From Alphaproteobacteria bacterium (lineage in GTDB: Bacteria; Pseudomonadota; Alphaproteobacteria; RF32; CAG-239): a DNA stretch of 53,938 nucleotides. The stretch is from positions 1 through 53,938 of the forward strand of contig JBGUGE010000062.1 of assembly GCA_045111335.1 (NCBI GenBank). The letters run 5' to 3'. Positions 1,999 to 50,729 of this stretch are shown in pieces (within the stretch, counting starts at the first letter, position 1; each line of letters begins with the position of its first letter). Position numbers and translations under genes: made by a program. Below the pieces are notes generated by a model. That model was not told where the DNA came from. It did no database searches and saw only the letters and a program-made list of their open reading frames with translations.

Positions 1999-2874
1999 AT
2001 GAATGCGGTCACAGAAAATATAAATCCGGCAACGATAAATATAGATATACAGAACGGCGAGGAAATCGCTCGTTTGATAAATAACGAAGATAAAAAAGTG
2101 GCAGAGGCAATCGCAAAAATTTTGCCCGATATCGGAGCGGCAATTGATATGATTGCCGAAAAACTGCGCAGCGGCGGGCGGATGGCTTATTTCGGCAGCG
2201 GTACCAGCGGACGTATCGGTATTCTTGACGCCTCTGAAATGCCGCCGACATACGGTGTGCGCGAGGATATGATTCAAGGATATATTTCCGGAGGCGAGCG
2301 CGCGGTGCGTTATTCTGTGGAAAGCGCCGAAGATAAGGAGGAGTTGGCCCAAGAGGATTTGGCAAATTTTAAGCCGACAGCCGACGATGTGGTGGTAGCA
2401 ATATCAGCCAGCGGTAATCCGCAATATACGCTTAAAATTTTGCAGCTTGCCCGCGAAAAAGGTGTTGCCACCGTTGCGATTACTTCAAATCCGGAAGCAA
2501 AATTTAAGCCGTACGCTGATATTTTTCTGTGTGCTTTGGTCGGTCCGGAAGCGGTTTCGGGTTCATCGCGGATGAAATCGGGAACGGCGCAAAAAATGAT
2601 TGTCAATATGTTGTCGACCGGTGCAATGATCCGCCTCGGCAAAACCTACAAAAATTATATGATAGATGTGCAAATCAGTAATGATAAATTACGTGAGCGG
2701 GCATTGCGTTATGTCTGCGAAATTACCGGTGCGGATGAGTTTGCGGCTCAAGAGGCGTTACATGCCTCGGGGAATGTTAAAACCGCATGCGTTATGATTG
2801 CAAAAAAGTGCAATAAAGCACAGGCAGAGCAGATGCTGAAGCAAAATGAAGGAATTTTGCGGCGGATTTTATAG
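1999..2874 (+). CDS. murQ: N-acetylmuramic acid 6-phosphate etherase (SIS domain)
   Basis: 291 aa with a GSGTSGRIG SIS motif and the typical MurQ length. An AGAGG RBS precedes the ATG. Confidence 0.85.
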   Translation: MNAVTENINPATINIDIQNGEEIARLINNEDKKVAEAIAKILPDIGAAIDMIAEKLRSGGRMAYFGSGTSGRIGILDASEMPPTYGVREDMIQGYISGGERAVRYSVESAEDKEELAQEDLANFKPTADDVVVAISASGNPQYTLKILQLAREKGVATVAITSNPEAKFKPYADIFLCALVGPEAVSGSSRMKSGTAQKMIVNMLSTGAMIRLGKTYKNYMIDVQISNDKLRERALRYVCEITGADEFAAQEALHASGNVKTACVMIAKKCNKAQAEQMLKQNEGILRRIL

Positions 2875-3423
2875 ATTGCTTTTTGCAATTTTTTGATAAA
2901 TTTCATCAGCCGACAATCGGTTTAACATCGACGGCGTTAAGTTGATTTTTTGCCACGTTTCGGCCGGGATTTCCGGCTTTTTGATAATTTGTAATTTAAA
3001 GTTTTCGGCCAACATTTCGTTTTTGTTTTCTGCGGTTAACAGACATACCTCGCCTGCGCCCAAAAACGGCAATCCCAACTTTTCGACTACCGGCAAATGC
3101 GTTACAAAATGATAATATGATACCGAATCATCGGTATATTGCAGAAGTTTGTTGATAAATTCGGTAATGGCAAATTTTGTGGCGTTTTCTTCCAAAGCTT
3201 CAATACAGAGCAGGTGATTTGTCTTCATACCGAGCGCCTCAAAACGTGCCGTTTCGACTGCCCGTGCCAACGGTGAATGATAAATTGCGGCGCACTCCGG
3301 TAACCATGATTTGAATTGCCGTCCGGTCAAAAATGCCGCAATCATATCTTCGCGCTCGATTGCTGTATCATTGCCGTAACGCTCATGTCGGCCGAAACTT
3401 AAATAAAATTTATTCGGCGTCAT
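2869..3423 (-). CDS. Histidine phosphatase superfamily protein, SixA-like
   Basis: 184 aa with an N-terminal GRHE(R) motif, HSPLARAVETA and FVTHLP blocks that resemble SixA. Confidence 0.55.
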   Translation of the reverse strand: MTPNKFYLSFGRHERYGNDTAIEREDMIAAFLTGRQFKSWLPECAAIYHSPLARAVETARFEALGMKTNHLLCIEALEENATKFAITEFINKLLQYTDDSVSYYHFVTHLPVVEKLGLPFLGAGEVCLLTAENKNEMLAENFKLQIIKKPEIPAETWQKINLTPSMLNRLSADEIYQKIAKSNL

Positions 3424-35075: not shown

Positions 35076-37379
35076 TTATGAACCGAAACTACCGATGGTC
35101 TTCAAATAAAACGTCATACCGAATTCATAATCGTTCTTTAAATTCGGGTTGCTGGTGTTATATTTTTTGAAAGATATATCCCAAGTAAAACACTCATCAT
35201 CATAAATAGCTCTGCCTCCGTGCTCCAAGCGTCCGCGACGTTTTTTGGTTAAATCCTCCAAATTGTAAACGGACACTTTCCAATGCTCGGAAATCTCGGA
35301 AGTCAGAGAGGTATAAAGCTCTTTGCGCTCCGAATATCTGTCAAAGTAATGTGTGTTACCTTGCAAAAAGATATAAGATACATTCAACTTTAACAGTGCC
35401 GGACCGACACTCGTCCCCAATTCACTGTATTTAGCATTCAAATTGTTTTTATCAAGACGGAAACGATAATTCAGGTTCAGATATTTGTTCGGATCGGCAT
35501 TGATTCGACCGACCAAATCGCTGAAATGTGTTGCATCCTGATTATCCAAACCCTGAATAAAGCTTGAGCGCCGACTGCGTTCGAAACTTTGTGCCACAAA
35601 AGCCGAGGTACGGCCGAAGATGTTGCCGTACGAATTCCAACGCATACCATAACTGATGCGACTGCCCGTATCATTTCGGTCATAGCCGGCATAACGGTCC
35701 AAATCCAAAACGTTGGTATCGTCCAAATAAACATCTTCACTGTCTTCGTTAGGGATTTTTTCTACTTTGTTACCGCCGTCAGGTGCTACAACACCGACAA
35801 TCACCGGCTCAACAATTTGTCGTGAGGTCGGGGTTGCTCTGACAAACGGCAGGTGCCATTCTACACCGGCCTGCGGAAAAACGCGCGCCGTGGTACCGGT
35901 ATAATTTTGGTTGGTGCTGTAGGCATAGCGATTAACGTAATAGGCGTCAGACTTAAGTGAGGTAACAAAGCGATACTTTTCGCCAAATGAGGTAGTGAAC
36001 GGAAGTTCCCACGAATTAATCGAGGTCAGACGCTGAGTTTGCGAGCCGTTCTGGTGATACACCGAAGCGGTGCTGAAATTGTTCTTGAAATACGAGCCCC
36101 ACGCCTGCGGATCAGAATAAAATTCGGCCTCTGCCAACGGCGCAACAAACGGTTTTTTGTTATTGAGTTCTTCAAATTGTCGAACATTACGGCGGTGCAG
36201 ATTATAACTCAAAATTTTGTAATAATAAGCCTCAACCGATGCATAATCACGCCCCGAAAAACGCTCAAACTTAATATCCGAAGTCAGCCATGCATCGTCC
36301 TGATGCGGTAAATCCAAATCTTTGAGATAAACATAATCGGAAACATAATTCAAATCATAGGTCATTTTCCAATAATCATTGATATCGGTACGCCCTTGCG
36401 CAAACAAATGCCCGCGGTGGTTAGGGCGATTTTTGTATGCGTTATCGTTTTTATCCGGATTGTCGTCCAAATAAGAACCGCTTATTTCCGTAAAAGAGTC
36501 GTAAAAATAGTGCGAAAAACTGCCGCTCCAGACAATATCTTTTTCCGAAGAATAAATAGGTGTAAACAAAACGTTGGTCTGATCATTGACTGCCCAGAAA
36601 TAACGCAATTGAAAATAAGCATCCAAATAACTGGAGCTGCCGATAGTAGGTGCCAACAAGCCGGAACGGCGCTTAACCGTCGGATCAGGATGGGTTAAAA
36701 ACGGCGTGTAAAAAAACGGCACCGATTTAAAATACATCAACGCGTGGTTATAATATACGTTTTGGGAATCTTCTTTGTGCTGCACTTTCAGAGCGCTGAC
36801 ATGCCACAGCGGACTTTTGCCTTCGCAGATATCGCAAGCGGTGTAAGTGGCTTTGCGCATAACTTTGGTGCGATTGTTTTTCTTTACAAAATATTCGGCC
36901 GTAACATGCGATTTGTCTTTCATTAAAACTTTAACATTTTGCATGGCGCCGATGCTCATATTATCAGATAGTGCAACCTCATCGCTATCGATGACCGAAC
37001 CGTCGGTTGTATACATTTTGACGTTACCGATGGCGGTCAGAGTATCGGCATTTTGGTCATAAACCACCTTATCGGTGGTCATACGCATACCGTTGTAGAC
37101 AATCTCAACATTACCCTGTGCCGTAACGATTTGGGCGGCATCGTCGTTAATCATTTCATCGGCCGAAAAGTCGATGGCGTCGTCACTTTCATCGGTATTT
37201 TCGGACACTACCGTCCCTAATTCCGTAATATTATTTGTAACAAAAAAGGTGGCTTCCGGCTCCTTTTTTTCTTGGCGGATGACTTCTCCGGCTTCGGTAA
37301 CGGCCTGTACCGAGGTGCTTATCAGCATCAGCATGAAGACATACGAAAATATTTCACAATAACGTTTATTCGTTTGCAT
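35076..37379 (-). CDS. lptD: LPS-assembly outer-membrane protein LptD
   Basis: 767 aa with a signal peptide, an OstA-like N-domain (ADxxxYDxxxxxxxAxGNV), a large Y/F/W-rich beta-barrel and a C-terminal aromatic end. Confidence 0.85.
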   Translation of the reverse strand: MQTNKRYCEIFSYVFMLMLISTSVQAVTEAGEVIRQEKKEPEATFFVTNNITELGTVVSENTDESDDAIDFSADEMINDDAAQIVTAQGNVEIVYNGMRMTTDKVVYDQNADTLTAIGNVKMYTTDGSVIDSDEVALSDNMSIGAMQNVKVLMKDKSHVTAEYFVKKNNRTKVMRKATYTACDICEGKSPLWHVSALKVQHKEDSQNVYYNHALMYFKSVPFFYTPFLTHPDPTVKRRSGLLAPTIGSSSYLDAYFQLRYFWAVNDQTNVLFTPIYSSEKDIVWSGSFSHYFYDSFTEISGSYLDDNPDKNDNAYKNRPNHRGHLFAQGRTDINDYWKMTYDLNYVSDYVYLKDLDLPHQDDAWLTSDIKFERFSGRDYASVEAYYYKILSYNLHRRNVRQFEELNNKKPFVAPLAEAEFYSDPQAWGSYFKNNFSTASVYHQNGSQTQRLTSINSWELPFTTSFGEKYRFVTSLKSDAYYVNRYAYSTNQNYTGTTARVFPQAGVEWHLPFVRATPTSRQIVEPVIVGVVAPDGGNKVEKIPNEDSEDVYLDDTNVLDLDRYAGYDRNDTGSRISYGMRWNSYGNIFGRTSAFVAQSFERSRRSSFIQGLDNQDATHFSDLVGRINADPNKYLNLNYRFRLDKNNLNAKYSELGTSVGPALLKLNVSYIFLQGNTHYFDRYSERKELYTSLTSEISEHWKVSVYNLEDLTKKRRGRLEHGGRAIYDDECFTWDISFKKYNTSNPNLKNDYEFGMTFYLKTIGSFGS

Positions 37380-38499
37380 ATTTCAAGTCCTTAGCAACAC
37401 CGCGCCGATAAAAGTAAAACGGGTTATAAAATAACAGCAAATACAGGCATACCAAAAGCGGAATAAAGCAGTTTGCATATAATGCCGGCACAAAATAAAG
37501 CGAGTGTCCGGCAAGGTTGGTCAGCGCCAAATCGTTACCGACCACCAAAATCATACAAACTGTTTCAATGGCAATTACCTTGGTCTGACCGCGACGGTTG
37601 AAATTACTGATTAACATACCGGTACAGGCAATCAAGGCCAAAATCATATTGAAAAACGGATACAAAACACGCCGATGCCCTTCCACCACAAATTTTCGTC
37701 TGTCTTGCGGGGATAAACTCTGGTCTTTATTGGCATTTATCAGTTCGGTAAAGCTTTTTTCGCGAGCGGTTTGTGCCTTGCGACGAGCCGAACCGCCGGT
37801 ATTGAAATCAGCCGAATAGCGCGTAAATGACAGCATATTAAACTTGAAAGTTTTTTTATTGAATTCCTGCCGCACTCCGTTAATGAACAAAATACGCGGT
37901 CCTTTCGGGGTTTGAATCATGCGTCCTTTTTCGGCGGTCAGCGTAACTTTCAGCTCCGGCTTGCTTTCATCGCTGACAAAAATACCGGTAACCGAGCCGT
38001 CGCCCTCGTGCTTATCGATAAACACCGTAATTCCGTTGTTAAGTGTGGTAAATTCGCCCTCACGAAATACAGCCTGTGTCAGATTGTTTTTAACCCGCCA
38101 CTCCAGCTCGCGGAATTTTTGCTCTGCCTGCGGAATGCCGAAATTCATAACATAAATTCCGAACAGCGATAGCAAAAATCCCACCAACAGCGGAGCCTGT
38201 GCGTTTTTCCACGGACTGATACCGGCAGACTGCATAACCACTAACTCGCGGTCGGTAATCAGCGAATTATAAACAAACAAAACGGCTACAAACAGCGCAA
38301 TTGGCGATAATACGTTGAAAATACGCGGCATCAACAGCGAAGTCATTTGCACAAACAGATATACCGGCAAGCCTTGTCTGGTTACCATTTCCACAAACCT
38401 GAGCGATTGTGTCAGCCACAACATGGCTAACAACGACATGGAAATCAGCAAAAAGCCGATGATTATTTGTTTGGCAATATACCTGTTCAATATTCTCAT
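37366..38499 (-). CDS. LptF/LptG-family LPS export permease
   Basis: 377 aa with an MRILNRYIAKQ N-terminus, six TM segments and a periplasmic beta-jellyroll insert. It overlaps the lptD start by 14 nt. Confidence 0.8.
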   Translation of the reverse strand: MRILNRYIAKQIIIGFLLISMSLLAMLWLTQSLRFVEMVTRQGLPVYLFVQMTSLLMPRIFNVLSPIALFVAVLFVYNSLITDRELVVMQSAGISPWKNAQAPLLVGFLLSLFGIYVMNFGIPQAEQKFRELEWRVKNNLTQAVFREGEFTTLNNGITVFIDKHEGDGSVTGIFVSDESKPELKVTLTAEKGRMIQTPKGPRILFINGVRQEFNKKTFKFNMLSFTRYSADFNTGGSARRKAQTAREKSFTELINANKDQSLSPQDRRKFVVEGHRRVLYPFFNMILALIACTGMLISNFNRRGQTKVIAIETVCMILVVGNDLALTNLAGHSLYFVPALYANCFIPLLVCLYLLLFYNPFYFYRRGVAKDLKYANE

Positions 38500-38613
38500 A
38501 CGCGCGATTATAACGGTATATTTCGCAGATTAAAATAAATATTTGCAAGATATACCCGCATATTTTAGCGCAAATGTGAATGTTTTTACGTTTTTTATCA
38601 GATTAATTCGGCC

Positions 38614-38649
38614 AAAAAAATATCACTCTATGCGCTCAAGCATAGGGTG
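38614..38649 (-). terminator. Intrinsic terminator ending the grpE-lptF/G intergenic transcript
   Basis: Minus strand reads CACCCTATGC-TTGAGC-GCATAGAGTG (10 bp, 1 G-U pair) followed by ATATTTTTTT. Confidence 0.65.
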
Positions 38650-38922
38650 ACATTTGTAAAGGAGTTCAAAAACCCTCGTCTGGCTGCGGATAATGGCTTT
38701 GTCGAATAGGGATTAAACAATGCGCGGTTGTTTCATCACCACAACCTGTCCTACATTGAATAAGAGCCTAATCTACCTGAAGAGCGTATGCCGTATTAGA
38801 GCATATTACCAACCTTTGTTTTAACACTCCGAAAGTGTTTATTCTCTTACTCGAATACCTAATGTCTCTGAGGAGCAGATTATCAGCCAACCAAGACTAC
38901 AGACCAAAATAATTGTTATCTG
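38614..38922 (-). ncRNA. Candidate ~310-nt structured non-coding RNA (or attenuating leader) of unknown family
   Basis: It is bounded by a near-consensus promoter and an intrinsic terminator. There is no ORF above 8 codons preceded by an RBS. It also has a long-range helix and several local hairpins. Confidence 0.4.
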
Positions 38923-38928
38923 AAAGGT

Positions 38929-38956
38929 AATATAACATAGTTTAAATTTTTGTCAA
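38929..38956 (-). promoter_or_regulatory. Strong candidate sigma70 promoter (extended -10)
   Basis: Minus strand reads TTGACA-N16-TATATT with TG at -15/-14. It starts 8 nt after the grpE stop. Confidence 0.6.
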
Positions 38957-38963
38957 GAAAAAA

Positions 38964-39536
38964 TTATTTTTTTCCGCCTTTAGTGACAATTACCATGGCT
39001 TCGCGCAAAATTCGGTCGTTAATCAAATATCCGGATTGCAGCTCGGCAATTACGGTTCCGGCAGGTTTTGACGGGTATTCCACTTCTTGTACCACCTGTT
39101 CGAAATTAGGGTCAAAAACCTTATCTAAACTTTCGATTTTTCTGATACCGAATTTGGCAAAAACTTTAGTAAGCTCGTTTTGCGTCATTTCCACACCTTC
39201 AAGCAATGCCCGGCATTGCTCTTTTTGCTGTTCTCCGACCGAGGTTACGGCGCGATGCAGATTGTCTGCCACCGTCAGCAATTCTTTGGCAAATGAAGAT
39301 AATGCGAATTTGGCATTTTTTTCAATTTCCTGCTGACAGCGTTTTTTGGTGTTTTCGGTTTCGGCACAAGCGCGCAAATAAGCGTCTTTCAGTTTGGCGT
39401 TTTCTTCCTCTAACGCGGTCAAAACATCATTTTCTTCCGTCACTTCTTCATCACTGTTGCCGCCTGAGTGAGTGTTGTTTTCATGCTCGGCGGTATTTTT
39501 AAATTCATGCGGTCTGAATTTTTTATCTTTCGTCAT
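38964..39536 (-). CDS. grpE: Nucleotide exchange factor GrpE
   Basis: 190 aa with an acidic N-terminus, a coiled coil (LKDAYLRACAETENTKKR) and a C-terminal beta domain. Confidence 0.9.
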   Translation of the reverse strand: MTKDKKFRPHEFKNTAEHENNTHSGGNSDEEVTEENDVLTALEEENAKLKDAYLRACAETENTKKRCQQEIEKNAKFALSSFAKELLTVADNLHRAVTSVGEQQKEQCRALLEGVEMTQNELTKVFAKFGIRKIESLDKVFDPNFEQVVQEVEYPSKPAGTVIAELQSGYLINDRILREAMVIVTKGGKK

Positions 39537-39606: not shown

Positions 39607-39689
39607 AGCTGTTTTTTTGTTGAAGGTTATAAAGAAATGGTATATATTAAGTAGGCTTGGATATCATTTTGTATGCGGAAAGGTTTAAT

Positions 39690-41723
39690 ATGTGCGCAGT
39701 CGTAATCGGTTCGGGACGTAAGGTTTATGAGTTTTTACCGACCAACTTCAATAAGAAAAAATATATCATCAATTACGGTGTGCCGAAAAATGCTATTCTT
39801 GCCGAGATTCAAAATACGGCAAAAAAACAATGTCTCAATAATACCGATTGGCCGAAGATAGATACGATTAACGCTTGGATGATAAGCGCCGAAACCGCAA
39901 CTTTTATGAAGTGCGGCGGGTTGGGAATGGTGGCTTCCGAGCTGCCGGAAAATTTCAATAACGTGTTCGGTAAAGATAAACACAATATCAGCATCATTAC
40001 CCCGCTTTATTTGGGAGATACGGGCAAGAAAAAAGCCGTATTGGCGGATGGTGTTTATTACGGCGCAGAGGGAAAAAATGTTGAGATTAAGCCGATTAAA
40101 ACCATAAAAATGTCGTTTGCCGGAAAGTATAAATTGCGCTCGTTTAATGTGGAAATTTATTCGGGCGTGTTTAAGGGGGTAACTTATTATTTTGTGCGCA
40201 ACGACCACTTCTTCGGCATCAATCCGGCAGCCGATAATCCTTCGGGACAGACCGGTTGCTATGTGTTGAATGAAAATAAAATAGATGAAGTCGAACGTTT
40301 TGCGTTTTTCTCTAAGGTGGTTTATCTGTTGCTTGAAGAATTGGCCGAAAAACCGGATAAGCACCTGTCGATGCCGAATATTTTGATTGCCAACGATTGG
40401 CACAGCGGGGCGCTTTCGGGATTGAATAAATATTTGACTTTGGCTAAGGTTTATACCGGCAAAATATCCCGCAAAGTTGCCGATAAAATCAGGAATATAC
40501 CGATTATTCACATTGCTCACCACATGGGCTATCAGGGTTGGGATTACGATAATACGTCGCGGATTTTGAATTCACTTTATGAGGATTTGGCAACGTTGAT
40601 TTTGAAAAATGCCAAAGCGGTCAAAAACAGCAATCTGCGCACGCAAAACACTTTGCTGGTCAGCGATACGTATAATCAGGCTTCGAGCAATATGCACTTG
40701 GCCGACCGTATTGTTACGGTTTCAAAAAATTATATGGAAGAAGTTTCCAGCAATAAAAATTTCGGATTCGATTTTCGCGATATTTTGAAAATTCGCAAAA
40801 ATTATCGCACTTTCTTCGGTATTGTTAACGGCTACGAAAAATGCCTTATTTCGCCGAACAAACAAAAAATTAAAGAAATAAATGACTTTTTTAAGATTAC
40901 CGATTTCAAGTTTTATGATGAAAAAAGTCTGAATGTAAAACTGCACAACAAGCGCGAATGTCTGAAGCTGCTCTCGCGTTTGGCTACCGATTCGAAATAT
41001 AAGGAACAGACTATTCCGCTGGTGGATTTGTACCAGTTTAACGATATAGTTTCCTTAATCGCAGAAGTTGATAAAATCCCGATTATCTGCATGACCAGCC
41101 GTATGGTGGAACAAAAGGGATATGATATGGCAATTCACGCAATTTTGCACATTATTGATCGCTATAAAAATACACCGGATAATTTCCCGATTTTCATTTT
41201 GGGCGGAGCCGGCAATAAAGATTTGTACCGTGATTTGATGATGCTTAAAGATAATGCCAAACAAATGTTTCGCGATTTTGCCAAACGCATTTTCGTGTTT
41301 CGCGGTTATAAAGATGAATTTGCGTATTCGGTGCAATTGGCGGCTGATTTTTATATGATGCCGTCGTATTTTGAGCCGTGCGGTTTGACTCAGATGGAAG
41401 CTATGGCCAAAGGCACTTTACCGATTGCCACTTCTACCGGCGGTTTGGTGGATACGATTACTGACGGGATTGACGGTTTTCGTACGGAAGCTTTTTTCGC
41501 CAACGGTGAAAAGATTTTCGGCAGCAACGCGGCGGCGCAACGCCTTCAAAATAATCTGAATGCTTATGAGTCGGCGTTGGATAAGGCTATTCGCTGTTTT
41601 TATGCGGCGCCGGAGATAATGCACAGAATGCAGCAAAATGCCATGGAAGACGATTTCAGCTGGTCATCGCCGGCCGGCTCGGTGTATAAATATTACAATC
41701 TGTTCAAAACCGGTTCGATTTAA
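39690..41723 (+). CDS. Glycogen/starch synthase-like glycosyltransferase (GT5 family) with a ~60-aa N-terminal extension
   Basis: KCGGLGMVASELP corresponds to the KTGGLGDV motif. The C-terminal PSYFEPCGLTQMEAMAKGTLPIATSTGGLVDT is a GT-B sugar-donor motif. A GGAAAGG RBS precedes the ATG at 39690. Confidence 0.75.
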   Translation: MCAVVIGSGRKVYEFLPTNFNKKKYIINYGVPKNAILAEIQNTAKKQCLNNTDWPKIDTINAWMISAETATFMKCGGLGMVASELPENFNNVFGKDKHNISIITPLYLGDTGKKKAVLADGVYYGAEGKNVEIKPIKTIKMSFAGKYKLRSFNVEIYSGVFKGVTYYFVRNDHFFGINPAADNPSGQTGCYVLNENKIDEVERFAFFSKVVYLLLEELAEKPDKHLSMPNILIANDWHSGALSGLNKYLTLAKVYTGKISRKVADKIRNIPIIHIAHHMGYQGWDYDNTSRILNSLYEDLATLILKNAKAVKNSNLRTQNTLLVSDTYNQASSNMHLADRIVTVSKNYMEEVSSNKNFGFDFRDILKIRKNYRTFFGIVNGYEKCLISPNKQKIKEINDFFKITDFKFYDEKSLNVKLHNKRECLKLLSRLATDSKYKEQTIPLVDLYQFNDIVSLIAEVDKIPIICMTSRMVEQKGYDMAIHAILHIIDRYKNTPDNFPIFILGGAGNKDLYRDLMMLKDNAKQMFRDFAKRIFVFRGYKDEFAYSVQLAADFYMMPSYFEPCGLTQMEAMAKGTLPIATSTGGLVDTITDGIDGFRTEAFFANGEKIFGSNAAAQRLQNNLNAYESALDKAIRCFYAAPEIMHRMQQNAMEDDFSWSSPAGSVYKYYNLFKTGSI

Positions 41724-50380: not shown

Positions 50381-50470
50381 CTTATTCGAGGGTTCTCATC
50401 CCTCTCGTTATTTACAATAAAACCCTCCGCAAGGGAGGGCTTTATTGTAAATGGCGGATAGAGAGGGATT
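50381..50470. repeat. 90-bp direct repeat, copy 1 (pseudo T-arm, palindromic terminator, last 19 nt of tRNA-Ser)
   Basis: Identical to 50568-50657 except for one base (T/G in TATTTACAAT vs TATTGACAAT). Confidence 0.9.
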
Positions 50471-50567: not shown

Positions 50568-50657
50568 CTTATTCGAGGGTTCTCATCCCTCTCGTTATTG
50601 ACAATAAAACCCTCCGCAAGGGAGGGCTTTATTGTAAATGGCGGATAGAGAGGGATT
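50568..50657. repeat. 90-bp direct repeat, copy 2 (overlaps the genuine tRNA-Ser 3' end and its terminator)
   Basis: See copy 1. The repeat period is 187 bp. Confidence 0.9.
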
Positions 50658-50729
50658 CGAACCCTCGATACCCTTTAGAGGTATACACGATTTCCAATCG
50701 TGCGCCTTAGGCCACTCGGCCATCTATCC
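50639..50729 (-). tRNA. tRNA-Ser (anticodon GGA), long variable arm
   Basis: The reverse complement is GGATAGATGGCCGAGTGGCCTAAGGCGCACGATTGGAAATCGTGTATACCTCTAAAGGGTATCGAGGGTTCGAATCCCTCTCTATCCGCCA. The anticodon loop is TTGGAAA. Confidence 0.9.

Follow-up and report, generated by a model that had tools for sequence, protein, structure and literature searches.

The window analysed here, a 53,938-nt stretch of DNA from an uncultured alphaproteobacterium, carries on its minus strand grpE (38964-39536), lptF (37366-38499) and lptD (35076-37379, overlapping lptF), three gene names that are backed by NCBIfam models. A gap of 464 nt (38500-38963) separates grpE from lptF. The initial annotation had called this gap the largest ORF-free stretch of the window. 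When the window is crudely covered with ORFs of 90 aa or more, the gap ranks third overall, but the statement holds once the stretches that contain tRNAs and those cut by the window end are set aside. Within the gap, a promoter-to-terminator unit lacking an ORF had been described, and all of its features could be located on the minus strand, with about 310 nt between promoter and terminator that contain no credible ORF. The predicted primary transcript is ~309 nt long (38614-38922, minus strand), with its 5' end placed about 7 nt past the -10 box and its 3' end inside the T-tract. Judged by comparison with relatives, the unit between grpE and lptF is a lineage-specific insertion or retention and not a conserved spacer.

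Searches with LptF and GrpE retrieved loci of uncultured Alphaproteobacteria from rumen and gut metagenomes. In the nearest species (LptF 88%, GrpE 78-82% identical) grpE and lptF lie only ~110 nt apart, and alignment identifies ~345 nt of the window (~38957-38614) as extra. Short gaps of 99-131 nt without the element were found in about 17 related genomes or contigs, and of about 20 lineages, all with grpE-lptF synteny, 2 carry the element. The second carrier species, whose GrpE (P0009) is 75% identical to that of the window, was assembled independently three times (L025 from Logan, L024 from ENA and L034 from JGI) and has a homologous element at the same junction. The sequence of the window species derives from sample SRR25030110, and the contigs of the second species derive from SRR14597538, ERZ27257205 and JGI Ga0310697. 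Among contigs obtained for ten GrpE proteins of other lineages, the element occurs only with P0009; the ~1160-nt contigs of P0006 and P0010, guessed to be carriers, lack it.

In a neighbour-joining tree of GrpE and LptF, the window species is sister to the short-gap clade and the L024 species lies just outside. This distribution would fit two gains as well as a single gain together with one loss. T-runs mark both ends of the unit, one boundary following TAATTTTTT and the other following GATATTTTTTT, which would allow clean deletion. The even, background-level divergence of sequence outside the conserved blocks would fit vertical descent.

The promoter of the element consists of the -35 hexamer TTGACA (38956-38951, minus strand), which is found at the same position in L025 (644-649), and the extended -10 sequence TGtTATATT (38929-38937, minus strand; TG at 38937-38936, TATATT at 38934-38929). 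It begins 7 nt past the grpE stop codon, has a 16-nt spacer and agrees with the consensus at 11 of 12 positions in addition to the TG. A near-consensus TTGACA-N16-TATATT with TG is thus present as claimed, but it is not uniquely the best match, being one of seven in the window that agree at 11 of 12 positions. The L025 promoter, TTGACA-16-TGcTATATT, shares the architecture and the 16-nt spacing, and the sequence of its spacer differs. Retention of the promoter in two species despite a differing spacer sequence argues for independent transcription.

An intrinsic terminator had been proposed ~270 nt past the promoter, and we located it at 38614-38650 on the minus strand. Its stem (38650-38623) is formed by TCACCCTATGC and GCATAGAGTGA, with 11 pairs, one C.A mismatch and a 6-nt loop, and is followed by a T7 tract (38620-38614; U7 in the RNA). 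L025 retains both the stem base, TCACCC/GGGTGA, and the T7 tract. The window sequence contains no terminator between the grpE stop codon and the element, and the unit is therefore also the 3' UTR of grpE and supplies the grpE terminator. Beyond the unit, alignment with short-gap relatives shows that the ancestral short spacer between grpE and lptF survives in degenerate form (GGCCG..AATAAAAaACG..TTTGCGCT; 38557-38613, minus strand). The hairpin that terminates grpE in these relatives can no longer be folded from this remnant in the window, and the remnant sets the right-hand limit of the unit that was inserted or retained.

Between promoter and terminator, the window and L025, with a predicted RNA of ~408 nt, share ten exact blocks of 4-12 nt in conserved order: TCTGTAGT, TTGGT, GCTCCT, GAGA, TCGAGTAAGAG, GCTCTTCAGGTA, TTAGGC, CCTA, AAAGC and ACGAGGGTTT, of 8, 5, 6, 4, 11, 12, 6, 4, 5 and 10 nt, respectively. 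The spacers between blocks are 13/10, 10/13, 58/58, 55/59 and 16/18 nt long in the two species and are unrelated in sequence; the constant 58-nt spacer lies between blocks B2 and B3. On the minus strand of the window, block B1 (TCTGTAGTcTTGGT, 38890-38903) is identical to L025 at 13 of 14 positions. It is followed by the conserved block GCTCCT-nn-GAGA (38865-38876), which is C/U-rich and resembles an anti-Shine-Dalgarno sequence, and by B2 (TTCGAGTAAGAG, 38844-38855), which is identical at 12 of 12 positions in L025, L024 and L034. Block B3, comprising GCTCTTCAGGTA, 2-3 nt and TTAGGC (38766-38785), and block B4 (ACGAGGGTTT, 38670-38679) are likewise conserved in the second species, and the block CCTAtTcGAcAAAGC (38696-38710) has the counterpart CCTAaTtGAgAAAGC in L025.

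The divergence of the two genomes provides a background for judging these blocks. At four-fold degenerate sites of grpE and lptF, 91 of 184 positions are identical (~49%), and by our calculation the chance that a given 12-mer stays identical against this background is ~2e-4. Identical blocks of 10-12 nt at ~49% synonymous-site identity indicate that the blocks are under purifying selection. Outside the blocks, the spacer lengths, the closing helix described below, the promoter and the terminator, the two copies have diverged to background. The second species is itself polymorphic. L024 and L034 have the same sequence, which differs from that of L025 by a 51-nt deletion and six substitutions. 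Both the -10 box and the 5' leader are lost with the deletion (L024 3080-3095 and L034, against L025 644-700). Of the six substitutions, two weaken predicted helices and two change C-G to U-G. In the L024/L034 strains, the RNA may be made only as part of the grpE 3' UTR, or may be decaying in part of the population.

The closing helix of the RNA, designated P1, pairs the B1 region with the stretch just before ACGAGGGTTT in both species. It had been proposed for 38897-38879 and 38694-38678 and is confirmed: the 5' strand (GUCU .. UGGCUG-AUAAU, 38879-38897) and the 3' strand (AUUAU-ccg-CAGCCA-GAC, 38678-38694), both on the minus strand, are paired in the minimum free energy (MFE) folds of both species, and the helix is kept in the diverged homolog with compensatory changes. 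In the window the P1 duplex has an energy of -17.3 kcal/mol, and 53 of 1000 shuffles do as well; in L025 the energy is -21.6 kcal/mol, and 1 of 1000 does. RNAalifold recovers P1, with columns 9/231 changed on both sides (U-A in L025 and L024, C-G in the window). A direct reading of the inner segment, UGGCUG/CAGCCA in the window against CGCCGA/UCGGUG in L025, implies two further double changes (G-C to C-G and U-A to C-G) together with a single change from G-C to G-U. This covariation rests on a handful of pairs from two diverged lineages.

The description of the element as a structured RNA holds in that P1 is kept in the homolog, but the window copy alone does not demonstrate it. A 316-nt stretch of the window folds no better than shuffled sequences (z = -1.49 sense, with 7 of 100 shuffles folding as well, and z = -1.38 antisense), so that from the window alone the promoter and the terminator are solid and the structured RNA is not. 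The L025 RNA has z = -4.80, with 0 of 100 shuffles as good, and its antisense strand comes close (z = -4.31). The hairpin AACACT..AGTGTT and the helix GGTTGT/ACAACC are present in the window as described. The suggested switch between GGTTGT/ACAACC and AAACAA/TTGTTT fails on comparison, L025 having at this position a single plain 9-bp hairpin without a competing partner. Hairpins can be formed in each variable spacer in both species. A shared interior model with helices P2, P3 and P4 was rejected, lying 9-12 kcal/mol above each MFE, and RNAalifold gave interiors that disagreed between two inputs, one aligned crudely on anchors and the other by MAFFT. Block B3 is misplaced in automatic alignments, the interior pair counts from MAFFT are unreliable, and we claim only P1.

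Searches for known RNA families place the element outside all of them. Rfam 15 (4227 models), run on the whole window at gathering thresholds, returned hits only outside the gap, namely four tRNAs and one rpsB leader. At E up to 10, the region 38450-39050 gave only noise, the best match inside the unit being a snoRNA model at 15.5 bits (E = 5.7), and at E up to 1 the homologous loci had no match. ARAGORN, used to look for tmRNA in the whole window, found only the four tRNAs. The earlier failure to match the conserved cores of tmRNA, RNase P RNA, SRP RNA or 6S RNA agrees with the Rfam and ARAGORN results for the gap, and the novelty that had been suggested for it withstands the Rfam search; our literature search likewise found no description of an RNA at the grpE-lptF locus. 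Some strings in the window copy recall known motifs, namely the group I intron Q/R core (AUCCGCAGC and UCAGAGAC) and the tmRNA 5' end (GGCUGAU..AUUCGA). In both cases their order does not fit and L025 does not share them, and they were dismissed. The pattern scans for the conserved blocks, given below, included the whole assemblies of the sister species. Given that the element is absent from sister species and that the scans gave only chance matches, it cannot be an essential or relocated housekeeping RNA.

The unit contains no ATG-started or conserved ORF on its transcribed strand, and comparison of the window with L025 gave no conserved ORF on either strand. By blastn, the unit had no match in phage and plasmid collections, and within the window it has no second copy, no terminal inverted repeats and no direct repeats. 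A MITE or other small mobile element was considered and rejected: inverted and direct repeats are missing, the unit is single-copy in the sequence searched, and its only flanking feature is the pair of T-runs, which are ambiguous. Complements of the conserved blocks occur in the 54-kb window only in the element itself.

The search for further members was extended to one genome for each of 185,579 species, using exact block patterns. B2+B3 gave no match, B3+B4 gave four chance matches in GC-rich coding DNA, B1+B2 gave three chance matches, and a relaxed B1+B2+B3 pattern gave three chance matches. A B1+B2 match in L048 (Rickettsiales) showed extra similarity, but it falls within a 314-aa ORF on the opposite strand, was not scored by the profile HMM and was discarded. 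That HMM, built from the two copies, identified no other copy in ~700 kb plus a further 113 kb of sequence. Pattern scans of viral contigs gave no match, and in JGI metagenomes L034 was the only true match, the other 10 being chance.

Three observations elsewhere in the window concern other features. The rpsB leader found by Rfam (RF01815; 30459-30552, plus strand) scores 47 bits against a gathering score of 40 and fits an alphaproteobacterial origin of the window. A glycogen synthase-like protein resembling GlgA (39657-41723, plus strand) has 688 aa, compared with about 480 aa in the NCBIfam models, which it matches in two stretches below every curated cutoff; this suggests that the protein carries a large insertion or extension, and a 677-aa form is found in relatives. 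Finally, a 90-nt direct repeat (50381-50470 and 50568-50657) has copies that are 99% identical, lie 187 nt apart and are separated by a GC-rich insert of ~97 nt. Each copy comprises the last ~19 nt of tRNA-Ser(GGA), the gene for which lies at 50639-50729 on the minus strand, then a palindromic terminator-like hairpin and ~30 nt more. The repeat looks like a duplicated tRNA 3' end and is possibly an att-like scar of integration or excision.

The grpE-lptF junction holds other cargo in other genomes. In a sister lineage, ~370 nt of unrelated, ORF-poor filler occupies the same junction (L004 2575-2945, L005 2605-2945 and L027 2560-2900). It follows an intact grpE terminator, is alike at the ends in L004 and L005 and different between them in the middle, and had no match in Rfam. 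L009 has a 640-nt gap at this junction (2360-3000) with an apparent reverse-strand ORF of ~140 aa that, by eye, contains a hydrophobic stretch. On these comparisons, the junction varies and is a hotspot of small accessory cargo.

We consider it reasonably probable that the element is an accessory gene that stands alone and encodes a structured noncoding RNA of ~310 nt. By the comparative evidence it is selectively maintained, and by its position it also supplies the grpE terminator. A sigma-70 promoter with an extended -10, placed just past the grpE stop codon, would give rise to the discrete RNA, and the strong intrinsic terminator would end both this RNA and the grpE transcripts. The RNA would be expected to act in trans: it could pair with targets through conserved blocks left single-stranded, or it could serve as a scaffold that binds a protein. 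Candidate pairing blocks include two that are C/U-rich, in which GCUCCU and CUCUUC resemble anti-Shine-Dalgarno motifs. The RNA is presumably dispensable, as indicated by sister species without it and by one strain that has lost the -10 box, and lptF would not be regulated by it. There is also a small but appreciable chance that the two copies represent the first of a new class of RNAs with a complex fold. The ~230-nt core, closed by P1, would then be a multi-helix structure with the invariant junctions UUCGAGUAAGAG, GCUCUUCAGGUA and ACGAGGGUUU, the conserved nucleotides would form a ligand-, protein- or ribozyme-type active site and not antisense seeds, and the whole would be a small accessory cassette of gut and rumen Alphaproteobacteria.

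An alternative that we regard as unlikely is that the element acts primarily in cis as the grpE 3' UTR, stabilizing or destabilizing grpE mRNA and providing its terminator, with the internal promoter secondary or with the RNA processed out of the mRNA. Small RNAs that derive from 3' UTRs, by processing or from their own promoters, are a known class (PMC13501541). No terminator separates the grpE stop codon from the element, the ancestral terminator downstream of grpE is degenerate in the window, and L024 and L034 keep the element without a -10 box, so that there it could be made only as a 3' UTR. Against this alternative, the near-consensus extended -10 promoter is kept in two species with differing spacers, and most relatives end grpE with a plain terminator hairpin. 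Quite unlikely, in our view, is a relic without function, left in the grpE-lptF hotspot by foreign or mobile DNA or by a gene that has decayed. The filler in L004, L005 and L027 and the small reverse ORF of L009 show the junction to be such a hotspot, and the patchy distribution, the T-run boundaries and the promoter deletion in one strain would suit a relic; the identity of 10-12-nt blocks with order and spacing kept, against ~49% synonymous identity, and the conservation of promoter and terminator would not. Terminal inverted repeats, a second copy in the window or other sequence searched, and phage or plasmid matches, moreover, are all missing. That the unit encodes a small protein or a toxin peptide appears extremely improbable. 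ORFs of 22-40 aa do occur on the transcribed strand, but all of these short ORFs start with TTG, none has a Shine-Dalgarno sequence and none is conserved, the frame through B1 and B2 stopping after B2 in the window and continuing in L025. Stop codons within the conserved blocks and spacer lengths that differ by 1 and 4 nt exclude a coding explanation.

The initial annotation had also offered an attenuator of the LPS operon, and we judge it very unlikely that the element is a cis-acting leader, attenuator or riboswitch of lptF-lptD-surA with a transcript starting at 38922 and conditional read-through into lptF. The orientation of the element, which is that of lptF, the position of its terminator ~115 nt before the lptF start and the resemblance of a multi-helix core with conserved junction-like blocks to an aptamer speak for such a role. 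It is contradicted by a block outside the RNA, the ~57 nt upstream of the lptF ATG (GGTATATCTTGCAA...TATAAT...ATG; 38500-38556, minus strand), which is kept in all relatives with or without the element and is near-invariant across about 20 species. In the window this block lies downstream of the element terminator. Its perfect TATAAT (38512-38507) ends 7 nt before the ATG and is preceded, 30 nt further upstream, by TTGCAA (38548-38543), an arrangement that would imply a leaderless or near-leaderless lptF mRNA. The attenuator reading fails since the block is conserved below the terminator in every relative, including, in unchanged form, the about 17 that lack the element. A cis-acting leader would be expected to have no separate promoter between it and the regulated gene, a conserved association with that gene and a conserved antiterminator pairing with a sensor domain. 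Here the lptF block, with its putative promoter activity, intervenes, the association is limited to 2 of about 20 lineages, and the comparison of the window with L025 gave no such pairing. The distance from B4 to the RNA end is 143 nt in L025, with independent, unrelated hairpins, compared with 56 nt in the window; these ~100 extra nt of separate hairpins between core and terminator rule out a conserved coupling of terminator and antiterminator. The alternative helices that had been proposed are not conserved.

Type I small RNAs derived from 3' UTRs, such as DapZ of Salmonella, have their own promoter and share the terminator of the mRNA. The element resembles them in that it follows a coding sequence immediately and in the same orientation, is preceded by a promoter of its own and uses one intrinsic terminator for both transcripts; in one strain variant the RNA can be made only as a 3' UTR, a further point in common with 3' UTR-derived RNAs. 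Unlike in type I, the promoter of the element lies past the stop codon and not within the coding sequence. Its RNA, at 310-410 nt, has blocks along the full length and a closing helix, compared with a 50-100-nt seed plus terminator. Its host is an uncultured alphaproteobacterium.

The element also has conserved blocks, variable helices of conserved length and no coding potential in common with orphan structured noncoding RNA motifs of the Weinberg/Breaker type, which intergenic comparative genomics has brought to light (for example PMC5737381, PMC2864571 and PMC8632094). It is found in two species, whereas the published motifs occur in tens to thousands. In size, in its long closing helix and in its predicted independent transcription it is similar to tmRNA (including the permuted alphaproteobacterial form) and to RNase P, 6S and SRP RNAs, from which it differs in being absent from sister species and in having no Rfam or ARAGORN match. 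Overall, the element is probably a rare orphan noncoding RNA gene, a new family within a familiar kind, with no link to LPS-operon control.

If expressed, the element adds an unclassified and fairly large noncoding RNA to the poorly studied, uncultured Alphaproteobacteria of rumen and gut. With only two carrier species, both uncultured and from the rumen, its practical reach is small and the novelty modest and narrowly distributed; a larger family with a complex conserved fold, if found by a wider covariance-model search, would raise the interest. The presence/absence and promoter-deletion polymorphisms provide a handle on what the RNA does. The element offers a natural example of an RNA gene that sits in the 3' UTR of a chaperone gene and has taken over its terminator.
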